Assembly (NCBI GenBank): GCA_023131895.1
Contig: JAGLYZ010000001.1
Coordinates: 72,957 to 136,956, forward strand
Reading direction: 5' to 3'
From: Candidatus Parcubacteria bacterium
GTDB lineage: Bacteria > Patescibacteriota > Minisyncoccia > Minisyncoccales > JAGMDC01
Length of the DNA stretch: 64,000 nt
The position numbers were made by a program, and so were the translations under genes. This document shows, in pieces, positions 17,897-31,606 of this stretch. Each line of letters opens with the position of its first letter. Position 1 is the stretch's first letter. Under the pieces are notes generated by a model. That model worked only from the letters and a program-made list of their open reading frames with translations, did not search any database and was not told where the DNA came from.

Positions 17897-18300
17897 GTTC
17901 AAGCAGGCAAGGCAATCGCTGAGCATTCAGTTCGCTGAGTGCTTAGAGGAAAGTCCGAACACCCATTCTAAGCAATTTATGTGCTTAGTTTAAAAAGATA
18001 GCGGCTAACAGCCGTCGACCGCAAGGTTAGAGGTGCGAACAGTGACGCCGAAGCTCGAAAGAGCTGAGGCGCCGAGCACTCAGTTTGCTGAGTGCTTGGC
18101 GAATCGAGCACGTAAATTTTATGTGCTCGGGTGAAACGGCTAAATCCTTATCGGGTGCAAGAACAAGCATTTCGGCAATCTCCGGATTTGCCGAAATGAA
18201 AAAGTGGTTCGCTTTAGTCAAGAAGTAATTCTTGGCATAGATAAATGATTGCCTCCCCGCTAAAAGCGGGGAACAGAATTCGGCTTATTGCCTGCTTGGG
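17897..18300 (+). ncRNA. rnpB: RNase P RNA (bacterial)
   Basis: P4 strands GAGGAAAGTCCGAAC and ACAGAATTCGGCTTA. P1 pairing CAAGCAGGCAA/TTGCCTGCTTG. Local GC is higher than the surroundings. Confidence 0.93.
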
Positions 18301-18337
18301 CTTTTTTATTTACAAAAAACAAGTTAAAATAAGATTG

Positions 18338-22808: not shown

Positions 22809-22865
22809 CCAGCCTTCGCTGACTTTGCGGGCTTTGCCCGCCGAAGCCAGCTACGGCTGGCGAAG
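22809..22865 (+). repeat. GC-rich palindromic repeat cluster abutting the tRNA-Gly 5' end
   Basis: CCTTCGC pairs with GCGAAGG. Inner hairpins GCGGGC-TTT-GCCCGC and GCCAGC-TACG-GCTGGC. Shares the GCTACGGC(G/T)GG core with the mnmA inserts. Confidence 0.6.
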
Positions 22866-22936
22866 GCGGGATTAGTATAGTGGCAGTACATGACCTTCCC
22901 AAGGTCAGGGCGCCGGTTCGATTCCGGTATCCCGCT
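22866..22936 (+). tRNA. tRNA-Gly (anticodon CCC)
   Basis: Manual cloverleaf: acceptor GCGGGAT/ATCCCGC, anticodon arm TGACC-TTCCCAA-GGTCA, T-loop TTCGATT. Confidence 0.85.
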
Positions 22937-22940
22937 ATTT

Positions 22941-23012
22941 GCCGGGATAGCTCAGTGGAAGAGCAGCGGTTTCGTAAATCGCAGGTCGAGAGTTCAAATC
23001 TCTCTCCCGGCT
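22941..23012 (+). tRNA. tRNA-Thr (anticodon CGU)
   Basis: Acceptor GCCGGGA/TCCCGGC, D arm GCTC-AGTGGAA-GAGC, anticodon loop TTCGTAA, T arm GAGAG-TTCAAAT-CTCTC, followed by a T-run. Confidence 0.85.
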
Positions 23013-23032
23013 CTTTTTTTCCGATTAATGTT

Positions 23033-27170: not shown

Positions 27171-27241
27171 TGCCGGGTCGGCTAATGGTAGGCCAAATGC
27201 CCCTGGAGCATTGAATCTTGGTTCGAATCCAAGCCCGGCAG
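27171..27241 (+). tRNA. tRNA-Gln-like gene (anticodon position reads CUG) with a non-canonical anticodon loop CCCUGGA
   Basis: Acceptor TGCCGGG/CCCGGCA with U1-A72 and G73. D arm GGCT-AATGGTA-GGCC. Anticodon stem AATGC/GCATT. T arm CTTGG-TTCGAAT-CCAAG. C occupies positions 32 and 33 instead of the usual U33. Confidence 0.6.
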
Positions 27242-27243
27242 CC

Positions 27244-27274
27244 GTCATATGCTAAGTCAGGTGATTGAGCCGCC
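27244..27274 (+). repeat. Conserved tRNA trailer, copy A
   Basis: GTCATATGCTAAGTCAGGTGATTGAGCCGCC. Recurs at 30184, 37271 and, partially, 39040. Confidence 0.7.
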
Positions 27275-27321: not shown

Positions 27322-27348
27322 TTGACGAACACCCTGAGGGGGTATAAT
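27322..27348 (+). promoter_or_regulatory. Promoter with embedded candidate CsoR-family operator
   Basis: TTGACG ... TATAAT. The spacer contains the G/C-tract pseudo-palindrome ACACCC-TGA-GGGGGTAT (27329-27345). Confidence 0.55.
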
Positions 27349-27377
27349 ATGAAATTATACAATTAGAAAATAAATAT

Positions 27378-27626
27378 ATGAGAAAAAACACAATAATCCA
27401 ACGTTTAAACATTGTCAAGGGTCAAATTGACGGATTGGCTAATCTTATAGAGAGAAAGGAGGATTGCCGCAAAATAACAGAGCAATTTTATGCAATCAAT
27501 GTTGGTCTGAAGAAAGTAATTGAAATGTATTTCAAGGACAATCTATCTTCCTGCCTAAAATCCATCAATCTTAAAAAAAGAAAAACTATTGAGTTTTTAT
27601 TAAAAGAAATAATTAAAAATAAATAA
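27378..27626 (+). CDS. CsoR/RcnR/FrmR-family (DUF156) repressor, CstR-like Cys-Asn-Cys variant
   Basis: IQRLNIVKGQIDGLANLIERKEDCRKI...YFKDNLSSC. Cys30, Asn55 and Cys59 have the CsoR C-25-H-4-C spacing, with the His position occupied by Asn. Confidence 0.75.
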   Translation: MRKNTIIQRLNIVKGQIDGLANLIERKEDCRKITEQFYAINVGLKKVIEMYFKDNLSSCLKSINLKKRKTIEFLLKEIIKNK

Positions 27627-27631
27627 TTTTT

Positions 27632-27964
27632 ATGTCAGATTTAATTTTAACTGATAAAAATTTCTCAGAAGAAGTTTTTAAAAGCCAAAAGCCAGTTTTG
27701 GTTGATTTTTGGGCCGAGTGGTGTGTGCCCTGCCAGATGATATCTCCAATTCTTCAAGAAATTGTTGATGAATTTGGAGAAAAAATAAAAATAGGCAAGA
27801 TTGATGTTGATAAAAACCCTTTAATTTCTGCTACTTTCTCAATAGATGCAATACCAGCATTAATTTTATTCAAGAATGGAAAAATAGTCCAAAGATTTAT
27901 CGGAGTTCAACCAAAGGAGATTATTACAGAAGCTGTTGAGTCTGTTATTGAAAAAGAAAGTTAA
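27632..27964 (+). CDS. trxA: Thioredoxin
   Basis: VLVDFWAEWCVPCQMISP active site, 110 aa, thioredoxin fold pattern. Confidence 0.9.
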   Translation: MSDLILTDKNFSEEVFKSQKPVLVDFWAEWCVPCQMISPILQEIVDEFGEKIKIGKIDVDKNPLISATFSIDAIPALILFKNGKIVQRFIGVQPKEIITEAVESVIEKES

Positions 27965-27974
27965 AACCAATTTT

Positions 27975-28784
27975 ATGACTAAAAAAATTGAAAAAATCAC
28001 AATTTTAGCCGGGATAAATAAATTCGGTAAAAAAGAAAATTTTGAAAAAATTGATATAAAAAAGGGAGAAGTAGTGGCGATTGTTGGCCATACTGGAGCA
28101 GGTAAAAGCCAGTTTCTTTATGATATTGAAAGATTGGCCCAAAAAGACACCAAAAGCCGACGAAAAATTTTAGTCAATGATGAAATTCCTGACAAAGAAA
28201 TAAGGTCTAATCCAAAAAGAAAATTAATCGCTTCATTGGCCCAAAGCATGAATTTTTTAACAGATATATCTGTTAAGGATTTTTTACAGTTGCATTTGGA
28301 ATCTCGCGGGAAGAAACCAAGACAGGGATTGCTTGAAGAAGTAATAGAGGAAGCTAATAAAATTACCGGCGAGGCAATTTCTCCTGAAATGAATTTGTTA
28401 AATTTATCCGGCGGGCAAAGCAGAGCCCTAATGGTTTCTGATGTGGCTAATATCAGCATTTCGCCCATTATTTTAATTGATGAGATAGAAAATGCCGGTA
28501 TTAAAAAAGAAGAAGCAATTAAAATTTTAGTAGAGGAGGGCAAAATTATTTTAATTGTTACCCACGACCCTTCTTTGGCATTAAACGCTGATAAAAGAAT
28601 TATTATCAAAGATGGAGGTATTGTTAAAATTCTAAATACTTCTTTAAAGGAAAAAGGTATTGCCTATTACCTTAATTGGATAGAGGGCTATAGCTTAGAT
28701 ATAAGAGAAAAAATAAGAAAAGGTGAAGAAATTAAAAACATAGAAATATACTGCGAACCAATTAAATCTAAGAATAATCTCTAA
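27975..28784 (+). CDS. Stand-alone ABC-type ATPase with no permease partner
   Basis: Walker A GHTGAGKS, signature LSGGQSRAL, Walker B ILIDEIE, H-loop VTHD. ATG 27975 preferred over the longer ORF. Confidence 0.7.
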   Translation: MTKKIEKITILAGINKFGKKENFEKIDIKKGEVVAIVGHTGAGKSQFLYDIERLAQKDTKSRRKILVNDEIPDKEIRSNPKRKLIASLAQSMNFLTDISVKDFLQLHLESRGKKPRQGLLEEVIEEANKITGEAISPEMNLLNLSGGQSRALMVSDVANISISPIILIDEIENAGIKKEEAIKILVEEGKIILIVTHDPSLALNADKRIIIKDGGIVKILNTSLKEKGIAYYLNWIEGYSLDIREKIRKGEEIKNIEIYCEPIKSKNNL

Positions 28785-28791
28785 AAATAAC

Positions 28792-29604
28792 ATGAAATTT
28801 ATAATTTTTGCCGGAACGCCCGGTTCAGGCAAAACAAGCATAATTAAATATATAATTCAAGAATTAAAAGATGATTTCAAATTGTTTTTCGTTAAGTTTG
28901 ATTGTCTGAAGACATCAGACAACGAACATATTGCTAAAAAATATAAAATTCCTGCCATTAAAAAATTAGCTGGAGAACTTTGCCCAGACCATTATACCGC
29001 TCTGGAAATTCCCAAGATAATTAAAGAGAACCAGGATAAAAATATTATTATTTTAGAAACTGCGGGCCTGTGTCTTCGTTGTTCTCCTTATATTAAAGAA
29101 GGGCTGGGGATCAATATCTTGGATATTACTTCGGGAGATCCTTTTCGCTACGGTCCGATTTTAACCGATGCGGATGTTGTGGCTGTTAGCAAAGGCGATT
29201 TAATTTCCCAAGCGGAAAGAGAAATTTTTAGAGCAAAGATTTTAAAGGTTAACCCTAAAGCAAAAATAGTGGAAGCTAACGGGCTTACCGGAGAAGGAGC
29301 CATTGATATCGTAGAATATATAAAAGCATCATCTTATATTGAAAAAGATAAAAAATTAACACTAAAACATTCTATGCCTTCGGCAATCTGTGGTTATTGT
29401 TATGGAAATAAAATAATTGATGAAAAAGAAACACAAAAAAGATATTTAGCCGGCAAGGAATTGAAAAATTTAGTTCCTAATTTAAATTGCGGAAAATGCG
29501 GATTCAAATCTTGCAATGAGTTTATCAGGGCGGTTTTAGACGGAAATGCAAAAAATGAACAGTGTCCATTTATTAAAAAAAAGGTTGTTGATAAAAAAGT
29601 ATGA
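28792..29604 (+). CDS. G3E-family (HypB/UreG/CobW-like) P-loop GTPase fused to a C-terminal RnfB-type Fe-S cluster domain
   Basis: GTPGSGKTS P-loop, ILETAG, SKGDL. C-terminal CGKCGFKSCNEFIRAVLDGNAKNEQCP matches the C-x2-C-x4-C...CP putative Fe-S domain. Confidence 0.65.
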   Translation: MKFIIFAGTPGSGKTSIIKYIIQELKDDFKLFFVKFDCLKTSDNEHIAKKYKIPAIKKLAGELCPDHYTALEIPKIIKENQDKNIIILETAGLCLRCSPYIKEGLGINILDITSGDPFRYGPILTDADVVAVSKGDLISQAEREIFRAKILKVNPKAKIVEANGLTGEGAIDIVEYIKASSYIEKDKKLTLKHSMPSAICGYCYGNKIIDEKETQKRYLAGKELKNLVPNLNCGKCGFKSCNEFIRAVLDGNAKNEQCPFIKKKVVDKKV

Positions 29605-29876
29605 TAGAGAAAAAACAAAAATTTGAACAATTGCTTGAAGAATATGAAAATTACGCAGAAAAAAACGGTTTTCGTTTAAATCCAGATCGAAAAGTAGTAA
29701 GTTATTTGATTAAAACGTTGCTGGAACGAGAAAGAAAATATGGCAGGAGGTATTGTCCGTGCCGTCGAATTAAGGAAAGCGAAAAAGAAAATAGCAAAAT
29801 TGTTTGTCCTTGCCTTTATTGTAAAAAAGAAATTAAAAAAGACGGACACTGTCATTGCTTTTTATTCGTAAAATAA
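29601..29876 (+). CDS. Ferredoxin:thioredoxin reductase catalytic-subunit-like protein
   Basis: CPCR...CPC...CHC cysteine pattern (YCPCRRIKESEKENSKIVCPCLYCKKEIKKDGHCHCFLF). Confidence 0.8.
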   Translation: MIEKKQKFEQLLEEYENYAEKNGFRLNPDRKVVSYLIKTLLERERKYGRRYCPCRRIKESEKENSKIVCPCLYCKKEIKKDGHCHCFLFVK

Positions 29877-29889
29877 TCTTAATAAAAAT

Positions 29890-30069
29890 ATGAGCAAATT
29901 TAAAATTAATAAATCAAAATGCGCTGGATGTGGAGCTTGCGTTGAAGTTTGTCCTTACGGGGCAATTAAAATTGGGGAAGATGGCAAAGCGGTCATAGAT
30001 GAAAAAAAATGTCAAAATTGTAGCAAATGCAAAGAAATTTGTCCTTTTAACGCTATAATTAAAAAATGA
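29890..30069 (+). CDS. 2x[4Fe-4S] ferredoxin (59 aa, below the ORF-track cutoff)
   Basis: My translation is MSKFKINKSKCAGCGACVEVCPYGAIKIGEDGKAVIDEKKCQNCSKCKEICPFNAIIKK, with two CxxCxxCxxxCP motifs. Confidence 0.85.
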   Translation: MSKFKINKSKCAGCGACVEVCPYGAIKIGEDGKAVIDEKKCQNCSKCKEICPFNAIIKK

Positions 30070-30140: not shown

Positions 30141-30214
30141 GGAGCAGGCTAGTGAGGCGTTCGGAAGACCGAGGGGACTAGCTGTCATATACTAAGTCAG
30201 ATGACAGAGCCGCC
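30141..30214 (+). repeat. Degraded tRNA-3'-half-like segment plus conserved trailer, copy B
   Basis: ...GTTCGGAAGACCGAGGGGACTAGCT then GTCATATACTAAGTCAGATGACAGAGCCGCC. CTGTCAT/ATGACAG forms a 7-bp hairpin. Confidence 0.6.
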
Positions 30215-30267
30215 CAGCACTGGGTCATTTTTATCTATCGCCAAAGAGGCGATTTTTTGGTTTGGTC

Positions 30268-30335: not shown

Positions 30336-30857
30336 ATGAAAAAAAGAATAGGAAAATTTGTTTTTGGGGCTTTAAGGACAGGTATTCTATTATTCATCGG
30401 GATAGGAATACTTGGTTTGGTGATAGATTCAATACTAAAGGGAAACAGTTTTTTTTTAGGTCTGATTCCAGGATTGCAGAATCAACCAATACTTGTCAAA
30501 GCAGGTCTTGGGCTTCTGTTCTTAATAGTCATAGGAGCAGTCATAAACTCCTTGATGAGCAAAGGAAAGCAACACTGAATTTTGACAAGATTGACTTCAG
30601 TAGGACATCTTTCAGAAAACCTATTGAATGCTCAGGTAGTAGGGATTGAGGTATTTCCTGGAAAATATCTTTTGGGCTTTACTAATAACGAAGTGATTTC
30701 CAACCCTAAAGTTAATCTTGTTCCAGTGATGGTCCCGAACACACCTGTTCCCTTTACCGGATTTACCTTTTTGGTAGAGAAAGAGTCCCTGAAAGAAATT
30801 GATATGAAGCCCTATGAAGCATTTGCTGTATTGGCAAGCGGAGGATTTTTAAGATAA
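30336..30857 (+). pseudogene. DUF502-family membrane protein interrupted by a single in-frame TGA (30576-30578)
   Basis: The ORFs at 30336-30578 and 30582-30857 are in the same frame. Together they give the DUF502 architecture (IPGLQNQP..., VPNTPVPFTGFTFLVEKESLKEIDM, LASGGF). Confidence 0.6.
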
Positions 30858-30928: not shown

Positions 30929-30982
30929 TTGACAGATATCTCTTTGTTTTGATATACTAAAATAACTTACCACTCGGTAAGT
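30929..30982 (+). promoter_or_regulatory. tetR-operon promoter plus palindromic operator
   Basis: TTGACA (30929-30934), 18 nt, TATACT. Inverted repeat ACTTACC-N4-GGTAAGT at 30965-30982. Confidence 0.55.
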
Positions 30983-31006: not shown

Positions 31007-31606
31007 ATGGCTATTGAAAAACAACAAGAAGATATTATTCAAGGCACCAAAAAACACATTATTGAAGTCGCTGGTAGACTTTTTTCAGAATATAGCTATT
31101 TAGGCGTTTCCATGAGTGATATCGCTAAAAAACTTAATATTACTAAAGCCGCGCTTTATTATCATTTCACAGGCAAGACAGAAGTTTACATGAAAGTGCT
31201 TGATGAAGTTTTTGGCAATTTAAGTTTGTCGCTTGGAGAAGCGTTTAACGAGAGGACAATTAACAAAAAGTTGCATAAGCTTATTAAGAATTATTTAGAT
31301 TTTGGTTTTAAAGAGAAAAATCTTATTAAATCTTTAATGTTGAAAATATCGCCAGCTGATCCCCAGATAGGAAAACACATTATTCAATTAAGAGAACAAA
31401 CTATTAACTTAATTCAACCAGTAATTAAAGAAATGATTGCAAACAAAAAATTAATACAAAAAGTTGATAGCAAATTATTGACTTCTCTGCTTACTGGAAT
31501 GATGGATGGATTACTTTTAGAATACTCATTTTTAGATAAAAAAATTGATTCAGAAAAAGTGTCAAATCAAATTATCGCAGTGTTATTTCAAAATGTCGAT
31601 GAATAA
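31007..31606 (+). CDS. TetR/AcrR-family transcriptional regulator
   Basis: N-terminal HTH FSEYSYLGVSMSDIAKKLNITKAALYYHF. Confidence 0.88.
   Translation: MAIEKQQEDIIQGTKKHIIEVAGRLFSEYSYLGVSMSDIAKKLNITKAALYYHFTGKTEVYMKVLDEVFGNLSLSLGEAFNERTINKKLHKLIKNYLDFGFKEKNLIKSLMLKISPADPQIGKHIIQLREQTINLIQPVIKEMIANKKLIQKVDSKLLTSLLTGMMDGLLLEYSFLDKKIDSEKVSNQIIAVLFQNVDE

Follow-up and report, generated by a model that had tools for sequence, protein, structure and literature searches.

What joins, in one compact operon of a reduced bacterial genome, a CsoR-family repressor, a thioredoxin (Trx), a soluble ATP-binding cassette (ABC) ATPase, a G3E GTPase with a C-terminal iron-sulfur (Fe-S) domain, a homologue of the catalytic subunit of ferredoxin:thioredoxin reductase (FTR) and a ferredoxin? 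The operon lies in a 64-kb stretch of DNA from a Candidatus Parcubacteria bacterium (assembly GCA_023131895.1, contig JAGLYZ010000001.1), the whole of which is here called the window; it was analysed by profile searches against Pfam and NCBIfam, together with structure and alignment comparisons. The operon is the union of two separable modules, because the pair of nucleoside triphosphatases (NTPases) occurs without the FTR-like protein and the FTR-like protein without the pair. The ABC-G3E pair and the ferredoxin together make up its conserved core; the FTR-like protein, Trx and regulator are frequent, dispensable accessories. By sequence, both members of the pair belong to known superfamilies (G3E and ABC), and no prior description of the pair as a system, or of the six-gene combination, was found in NCBIfam, Pfam, PADLOC, the Protein Data Bank (PDB) or the literature searched, in line with the original prediction for this locus, which did not recognise the combination as a described system.

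Gene content and conserved core

Six open reading frames (ORFs) on the plus strand span positions 27378-30069 of the window, with intergenic gaps of 5, 10, 7, -4 and 13 nt and a single promoter match in front of them, which bears out the prediction of six packed genes behind one promoter; the domain assignments made there also all hold in the profile, structure and alignment comparisons. The features are:

27322-27350, plus strand: predicted sigma-70-type promoter, TTGACG (27322)-17-TAATAT, from a motif search
27378-27626, plus strand: CsoR-family repressor of the dithiol CstR type, 82 residues (PF02583, E 8.5e-14)
27632-27964, plus strand: thioredoxin, 110 residues (TIGR01068, E 7.7e-36, 122 bits against a cut-off of 96.8), with the motif WCVPC
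27975-28784, plus strand: soluble ABC ATPase, 269 residues (PF00005, E 1.4e-11)
28792-29604, plus strand: G3E (HypB/UreG-like) GTPase with a C-terminal [4Fe-4S] domain, 270 residues (PF02492, E 3.4e-10; PF04060, E 1.1e-10)
29601-29876, plus strand: FTR catalytic-subunit homologue, 91 residues (PF02943, E 4.8e-23)
29890-30069, plus strand: clostridial-type 2x[4Fe-4S] ferredoxin, 59 residues, with two CxxCxxCxxxCP motifs
30212-30253, plus strand: two intrinsic-terminator-like hairpins with T runs at the end of the operon
27171-27243: tRNA-Gln, 5' of the operon

The start of the FTR-like gene overlaps the stop of the G3E gene by 4 nt. For the ABC ATPase the ATG at 27975, which agrees with the public gene call, is the likelier start; a start at the TTG at 27936, with which the ORF overlaps trx, was considered unlikely. 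Judged by eye only, no obvious Shine-Dalgarno sequence is present within the A/T-rich 20 nt 5' of the six start codons (e.g. 27357-27377, 27611-27631, 27954-27974 and 28771-28791). A terminator (hairpin plus T run) also lies 5' of the operon, with the tRNA-Gln, and Rfam gives no RNA element in the operon flanks other than that tRNA.

Which of these genes belong together is best judged from relatives. The G3E protein with its Fe-S domain (G3E-FeS) has 2338 relatives at E <= 0.001, of which the best 120 are 75-91% identical to it; source names of the closest include CPR3, Wolfebacteria and 'Babeliales'. Gene order was compared in 78 close loci, four from exact look-ups and 74 from a metagenome scan, and the counts that follow are out of 39, 50 or 29 loci. 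The ABC ATPase lies directly 5' of the G3E-FeS gene in all 39 loci, and a ferredoxin lies 3' of it in 48 of 50. The FTR-like motif is intact in 26/50 and the regulator present in 14/39, loci that lack a CsoR-like gene having DUF134 or DUF5320-type neighbours instead. The full six-gene set is found in nine of the 29 loci that have both flanks. Thus, failure of the genes to occur together elsewhere, which had been named as grounds for abandoning the prediction, is not what was found; the set does recur as a unit, but the emphasis shifts, since the conserved unit is the nearly universal NTPase pair with its ferredoxin.

The separability is apparent from both sides. A divergent archaeal clade, about 40% identical, has only the ABC and G3E-FeS pair, with reverse gyrase and eRF1 genes as neighbours. 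Conversely, FTR-like genes occur without the NTPases on a Pacebacteria contig, on two probable DPANN contigs, one of which encodes a glutaredoxin-Trx-FTR catalytic subunit (FTRc) arrangement, and at a further locus (L168, 5001-6378). In the last, the FTR-like gene directly follows an Mbh/Ech-like membrane hydrogenase operon and precedes genes for a Fer4-NifX-like fusion protein and for a NifU_N scaffold, so that FTR-like proteins are linked once more to Fe-S assembly.

The regulator and the thioredoxin branch

The original prediction assigned the regulator to the persulfide- or thiol-sensing CstR branch of the CsoR family, on account of two Cys residues and an Asn in place of a copper-ligand His, and proposed that its operator lies in the promoter spacer:

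27329-27345: putative CsoR-family operator ACACCCTGAGGGGGTAT, i.e. ACACCC-TGA-GGGGGTAT, a G/C-tract pseudo-palindrome that takes up the promoter spacer and extends into the -10 element

Both proposals agree with the comparisons. The regulator matches PF02583 with 52.2 bits against a cut-off of 22.8, and its closest solved relative is SpCstR (7MQ1, about 32 bits), with which it shares the sensing triad of C30, the 'wedge' residue N55 and C59', as identical residues with identical numbering. Cys residues occupy the positions of C36 and C65 of CsoR, giving the x-C-x-C fingerprint, and N55 aligns with the copper ligand His61 of Mycobacterium tuberculosis (Mtb) CsoR, so that no His is present at that position and no set of copper or nickel ligands is apparent. 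N-terminal Pro2 and His3 ligands are typical of FrmR and RcnR; the N terminus of the window protein, MRKNT, has neither. Because the SpCstR triad is matched, N55 stands at the His61 position and Pro2/His3 are lacking, the regulator is, by its residue pattern, a dithiol x-C-x-C sensor and not a copper sensor.

The operator ACACCCTGAGGGGGTAT is the sole match in the 64-kb window to ATACCC-N3-GGGGGTAT at up to two mismatches; 0.11 matches are expected by chance, and nine of 100 shuffled sequences gave one match. In most of the related loci compared, the consensus ATACCC-N3-GGGGGTAT, typically in the form TTGACAAATACCCTATGGGGGTATAC, is found between a TTGACA -35 and a T/A-rich -10 element, 5' of the regulator gene. 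The exceptions are a 'Babeliales' locus (L001), in which the operator is displaced and a TACCC-N5-GGGTA palindrome lies further upstream, and a locus in which the sequence is cut off (L157). The window regulator thus shares with CstR proteins, including SpCstR and those of S. aureus and E. faecalis, the PF02583 fold, the C30/N55/C59 residues and a G/C-tract inverted-repeat operator overlapping its own promoter. It differs from them in its apparent regulon. CstR clusters are defined in part by neighbouring sulfide or sulfite detoxification genes (PMC8643695), whereas none is present among the operon neighbours of the window regulator, which are Trx, the two NTPases, the FTR-like protein and the ferredoxin. 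We lean towards control of the operon by a CstR-like dithiol switch, the regulator being apparently CstR-like in mechanism rather than a proven CstR.

The genes for the ferredoxin, the FTR-like protein and Trx probably specify a reducing chain running in that order. As the prediction had it, all components of such a chain are, by gene content, present, and the alignment shows the cluster-ligating cysteines of the FTR-like protein, the lack of which would have counted against it, all to be in place. Trx has its active-site cysteines at C31 and C34 (WCVPC). The FTR-like protein has C52-P-C54, C69-P-C71 and C84-H-C86, i.e. all six functional cysteines, four as cluster ligands and two as the redox-active pair, and matches PDB entries over its whole length (4TPU, 1.9e-15; 7PWE, 1.3e-14; and plant and cyanobacterial FTRc). 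Its nearest solved relative is 4TPU, a Methanosarcina ferredoxin:disulfide reductase (FDR); the Methanosarcina FDRs, which are related to FTRc, reduce a thioredoxin. The partner assignment is further supported by natural fusions, of Trx with FTRc in five related loci (e.g. L114, 6166-6771) and of ferredoxin (Fer4) with FTRc in two proteins (P0355 and P0397).

In comparison with FDR 4TPU and with plant and cyanobacterial FTRc, the PF02943 domain and the CPC...CPC...C(H)C cysteines align, and ferredoxin and Trx are encoded alongside. The window protein is a single 91-residue domain without the rubredoxin extension of the archaeal FDR; in its third motif it shares CHC with plant FTRc, the archaeal FDR having CYC there. 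Unlike classical FTR, it has no variable-subunit (FTRv-like) gene in the operon. To our knowledge, no linkage of FTR or FDR with two NTPases has been reported. A motif search of the 64-kb window for trxB, with CA[TVS]CD and allied CxxC forms (C[GP][PH]C, CPYC, CGPC and CPxC), gave no match of the TrxB type, only two CxxC sites unrelated to it.

The FTR-like gene is not always maintained. In three close loci (L086, 2833-3177; L087, 6015-6362; L144, 847-1191) it is a pseudogene, with an in-frame stop and with FSC and CPH in place of the CPC motifs, and the CsoR, Trx, ABC, G3E and ferredoxin genes of the same loci are intact. The split ORFs of L086 and L087 were also considered as a selenoprotein; the stop codon lies outside the Cys motifs and the CPC motifs are degraded, so the pseudogene reading was kept. 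In a different arrangement, on a contig labelled Syntrophaceae (L164, 31-4058), HdrC-like and HdrB-like (CCG domain) genes precede the module and a Trx-like gene (CGRMGPMC) follows it; a second class of Fe-S-dependent disulfide reductase there replaces the FTR-like protein.

The paired NTPases and their wider family

The ABC ATPase has complete motifs, i.e. Walker A, Q-loop, LSGGQ, Walker B with the catalytic Glu, and H-loop. Among solved structures it comes closest to generic nucleotide-binding domains such as those of MacB, BceA, ABCB1 and MJ0035, and it reaches no NCBIfam equivalog. MJ0035, one of the top PDB sequence matches, is probably the archaeal SmsC. A SufC/SmsC-like assignment was considered and set aside, the family profile scoring exporter nucleotide-binding domains best. 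The prediction of an ABC ATPase without a permease stands: in none of the loci inspected does a permease gene lie next to it, and no permease family occurs among the recurrent clustered neighbours or the directly read loci, the adjoining gene being the G3E in all 39 close loci and in all 80 of the more distant loci described below. In having a Cys-rich partner in place of a permease, the soluble ATPase resembles those of SufBC2D and SmsCB; it differs in lacking specific sequence affinity to SufC or SmsC and in that its partner is a GTPase, not the SufB/D β-helix.

The G3E protein combines, as predicted, a HypB/UreG/CobW-type GTPase (PF02492) with an RnfB-like Fe-S domain (PF04060), the former supported by structural matches to HypB and UreG. 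An AlphaFold2 model (mean predicted local distance difference test score 87.7) gives as best Foldseek matches UreG (4HI0) and HypB (2HF8, 2WSM and 4LPS), followed by MMAA and signal recognition particle GTPases, with E values for HypB and UreG from 1.6e-12 to 1e-10 and template-modelling scores to the target of 0.70-0.74. The features of the G3E family are present, i.e. Walker A (GTPGSGKT), ExxG in G3, the [N/S/T]KxD motif of G4 (S133KGD, with Ser replacing Asn), the SIMIBI fold and a Cys/His metal site, the last within C64-P-D-H67 and E89-TAGLC94-x-R-C97, alongside a further C200-x2-C203. Across the wider family, the P-loop, ExxG, C64-P-D-H67, E89-x-A-G-L-C94-x-R-C97-x-P and P196-x3-C200-x2-C203 are invariant. 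C64 and H67 align with the CH motif of Methanocaldococcus jannaschii HypB (Cys95/His96) and the CPH motif of Helicobacter pylori UreG, and, in alignments to solved structures, C94 and C97 lie at the G3-loop cysteine of HypB and UreG; in the latter enzymes these residues make a metal site at the dimer interface (Metallostasis review). The C-terminal domain, C233-x2-C236-x4-C241-x16-C258-P, carries the same [4Fe-4S] motif as RnfB and the large subunit of the corrinoid/Fe-S protein. Matches of the G3E profile to RecA were discounted as an artefact of repeated P-loops.

HypB is the best NCBIfam match of the G3E protein, at 61.7 against the TIGR00073 equivalog cut-off of 121.2, and the UreG score is 28.2 against 204.2 (TIGR00101). 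Because it scores under both cut-offs, the protein is, on these profiles, assigned to a distinct G3E subfamily, apart from HypB and UreG proper; the G3E subfamilies listed in the Metallostasis review are UreG, HypB, MeaB and COG0523 only. It shares with HypB and UreG the fold, Walker A, ExxG, the CH/CPH motif and the G3-loop Cys, and adds to them the CPDH and C-x-R-C motifs, an invariant C-terminal CxxC and the [4Fe-4S] domain. Its obligate neighbour is the ABC ATPase, whereas the neighbours of HypB and UreG are HypA or UreE/F/D; no hyp or ure gene is a neighbour in any inspected locus, and no hydrogenase or urease genes lie near that of the window. Other known partners of G3E metallochaperones are the mutase and CobNST, and we know of none with an ABC ATPase partner.

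The pair extends well beyond the Fe-S form. A search of 1.84 billion representative proteins gave 396 relatives at E <= 0.001, two of which (P0125 and P0130) are G3E-ABC fusion proteins with an ABC half clearly orthologous to the window ATPase; a further such fusion occurs at L034. A scan of one genome per species with a six-sequence alignment gave at least 585 relatives, with a range that includes Clostridia, C. difficile, Fusobacterium nucleatum, Methanosarcina, Geobacter, Spirochaetes, Paenibacillus, Xanthobacter and others. In all 80 distant loci inspected, a G3E gene without the Fe-S domain is followed at once by that for an orthologous ABC ATPase (38-52% identical to the window ATPase), often with a 4-nt overlap. 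The ABC-G3E linkage is thus obligate in the inspected family, sometimes in a single polypeptide. In 74/80 of these loci the pair is preceded by a gene for a cytoplasmic solute-binding-like protein of 330-410 residues with an SBP_bac_6 domain, in most cases with an N-terminal DUF1858 domain, and with one conserved Cys (LPCP):

L005-L084, e.g. L036 4769-7711, L037 4799-7782 and L048 6001-8349: trio of DUF1858 + SBP_bac_6 protein, G3E GTPase and ABC ATPase

No solved structure close to the solute-binding-like protein was found, and all three proteins of the trio are without an NCBIfam equivalog match. The other neighbours of the distant loci vary, including Crp/Fnr regulators (11/80), hcp (6/80), metal-chelate and molybdate importers and DUF364/DUF4213 genes. 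A link to HcpR and nitrosative stress was considered and dropped, the trio not being listed among the hcpR-dependent genes in the section consulted of the C. difficile hcpR paper.

Candidate functions and spread of the module

The neighbourhoods of the close loci are rich in Fe-S and metal genes, among which the module lies where the CsoR-like gene is lacking, and they point to metal or Fe-S handling. In one (L003), a SufC/SufB-like pair adjoins the module and a cation diffusion facilitator (CDF) transporter is Pfam-annotated; labels given by sequence recognition, not by profile, are DUF59 and ZnuCB-like neighbours at L142, and NifX-like and MinD-Fer4 ATPase genes at L114 and L088, where a CDF transporter is also encoded. 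The architecture of the pair recalls the Nbp35/ApbC carriers and the ABC-driven SUF/SMS scaffolds; it belongs to neither family. With Nbp35, Cfd1 and ApbC (Mrp) it would share a dimeric SIMIBI NTPase, a CxxC possibly bridging a labile cluster, a stable [4Fe-4S] domain and an electron donor. The homology to those carriers does not go beyond the SIMIBI class: the window P-loop is of the G3E type, not the deviant Walker A (KGGxGKS/T), the domain order differs, an ABC partner is added, and cluster binding by the window protein is putative.

These features may be combined, tentatively and at somewhat less than an even chance, in a thiol-stress operon that joins Trx reduction to an NTP-driven chaperone of an Fe-S or other metal centre. 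Persulfidation or oxidation of the repressor Cys pair, by an oxidant or sulfane sulfur, would release the repressor and turn the operon on. The core module, i.e. the soluble ABC ATPase, the G3E GTPase-FeS and the 2x[4Fe-4S] ferredoxin, would act with the two NTPases as a complex, spending ATP and GTP on a thiolate-bound metal centre, which they would assemble, hold, insert, deliver or repair. In this lineage an Fe-S cluster would be the most plausible centre, in view of the [4Fe-4S] domain fused to the GTPase and of the ferredoxin encoded in nearly all close loci; the ferredoxin would supply electrons via the Fe-S domain. The accessory module, the FTR-like reductase and Trx, would be fed from the same ferredoxin pool and would keep ligand and client cysteines reduced, or strip persulfides, so that the two modules together would form a thiol and Fe-S damage-repair operon. 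That the ABC-G3E pair is, more generally, an unrecognised two-NTPase machine that builds, delivers or repairs thiolate-bound metal centres, possibly a P-loop Fe-S cluster carrier or repair system of a new kind, is a bolder proposal and on balance a doubtful one. Such a machine would have two forms, one with the solute-binding-like partner, in at least 585 anaerobe species, and one wired to the Fe-S domain and ferredoxin, which appears to be laterally spread and often coupled to Fe-S-dependent disulfide reductases and Trx.

Several findings weigh against the thiol-stress and metal-centre proposal. In about half of the close loci the FTR-like and Trx genes are missing or decayed, and they are also found free of the NTPases; for this reason the functional coupling of the two modules may be only co-regulation. 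The ABC ATPase is not specifically SufC- or SmsC-like, its best PDB matches being generic exporter nucleotide-binding domains, and the sulfide-detoxification genes that CstR-type sensors normally control are absent from the operon. The distant relatives lack the Fe-S domain and the ferredoxin, have the solute-binding-like partner instead and often lie by metal-chelate or molybdate importers; it may therefore be that the ancestral cargo was a metal ion rather than an Fe-S cluster.

Among the other explanations, the one with most in its favour is that the G3E protein inserts Ni, Zn or Co into an unlinked client in the classical HypB/UreG/CobW manner, with the ABC ATPase an accessory and the redox genes co-regulated. 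The retained HypB/UreG ligands, HypB as the best NCBIfam match, and the importers and DUF364/DUF4213 genes near the distant relatives are all compatible with this; we nevertheless consider it unlikely, given the scores below the HypB and UreG cut-offs, the lack of hyp and ure genes in the inspected loci, and the [4Fe-4S] domain, near-universal ferredoxin and extra CxxC, which have no counterpart in HypB or UreG. The translational coupling of the G3E and FTR-like genes by their 4-nt overlap, and their co-occurrence in 26/50 close loci, might instead suggest that the NTPases are dedicated maturases inserting the unusual [4Fe-4S]/disulfide centre of the FTR-like enzyme. This is improbable, as the archaeal clade, all 80 distant loci and about half of the close ones have the pair with no FTR-like gene nearby, as FTR-like genes exist without the pair, and as the pair is intact in the three loci in which the FTR-like gene has decayed.

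We give as little credence to an electron device resembling the nitrogenase Fe protein, in which nucleotide hydrolysis would lower the potential of the Fe-S centre for a difficult reduction via ferredoxin and the FTR-like protein. A SIMIBI NTPase fused to a [4Fe-4S] domain, with an adjoining ferredoxin and often FTR-like or HdrB/C-like reductases nearby, is what such a device might look like; yet the wider family retains the Cys/His site and the ABC partner without either the Fe-S domain or the ferredoxin, so that electron transfer cannot be the core function, and FTR-type enzymes need no ATP, from established FTR and FDR biochemistry. Least probable is that the ABC ATPase drives a membrane transporter encoded elsewhere, or that the cluster is anti-phage defence or mobile-element cargo. 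Its fold does resemble exporter nucleotide-binding domains, and a direct repeat, tRNA adjacency and very high cross-phylum identity suggest mobility, as set out below, but the G3E adjoins the ATPase in all 119 inspected loci, fusions link the two and neither the recurrent neighbour families nor the directly read loci place a permease beside the ATPase, PADLOC gives only generic partial ABC matches and nothing for the G3E, and no plasmid or phage copies were found.

Between the Parcubacteria genome analysed here and contigs from Wolfebacteria and a diderm 'Babeliales', the G3E protein is 84-86% identical; for the latter (L001, GCA_030631185.1, with MacB/OEP outer-membrane efflux genes), identity to the window proteins is 86% for the G3E-FeS and 80% for the ABC ATPase. 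Such identity would be far above that expected for vertical descent between phyla, and it suggests lateral spread of a compact cassette. The flanking genes differ among the inspected loci, none being shared with the window flanks, where a direct repeat encloses the operon:

27240-27274, no strand assigned: 35-nt direct repeat, left copy, starting in the last 4 nt of tRNA-Gln
30180-30214, no strand assigned: 35-nt direct repeat, right copy, 86% identical to the left copy

A 23-nt core of the repeat, with three mismatches allowed, has only these two matches in the window, against 0 expected. The repeat might be a scar of the att type left when a cassette inserted, or else a terminator-leader element common to both sites. 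Weighing against easy mobility, no integrase lies with the operon, and its GC content is not anomalous (0.316 vs 0.335). No plasmid or phage copies of the module were found, a Fusobacterium 'plasmid' match being a 2.1-Mb replicon without annotation.

As separate observations, the module has tRNA genes no more than about 350 nt away at L095/L156, L102/L107/L113, L104, L110 and L111, the tRNA identity differing between loci, and at L110 a 45-nt repeat (41/45 matches) is present on both sides of it. In the window itself, two small ORFs without a family match, of 80 (hydrophobic) and 91 residues, lie 3' of the operon and separate from it (30336-30857, 31007-31606 region), followed by a TetR-family regulator with its own strong promoter-like site at 30929. 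Elsewhere in the window are a bacterial class A RNase P RNA (17900-18302, plus strand, 125.5 bits) and, within 22865-23013, tRNA-Gly(ccc) and tRNA-Thr(cgt).

The operon is a concrete candidate, within a reduced genome, for a Trx system that is driven by ferredoxin, independent of NADPH and controlled by a CstR-type thiol sensor, and its module is among the most conserved proteins met in this analysis in genomes of the Candidate Phyla Radiation (CPR) and in Dependentiae-like genomes (84-86% identity). It thus bears on how ultra-small anaerobes handle oxidants, reactive sulfur and the upkeep of Fe-S proteins. As the family reaches tractable, medically relevant anaerobes, including C. difficile, Fusobacterium, Methanosarcina and Geobacter, its function is testable there, and what is found would be transferable to the uncultivated CPR, Dependentiae and DPANN.

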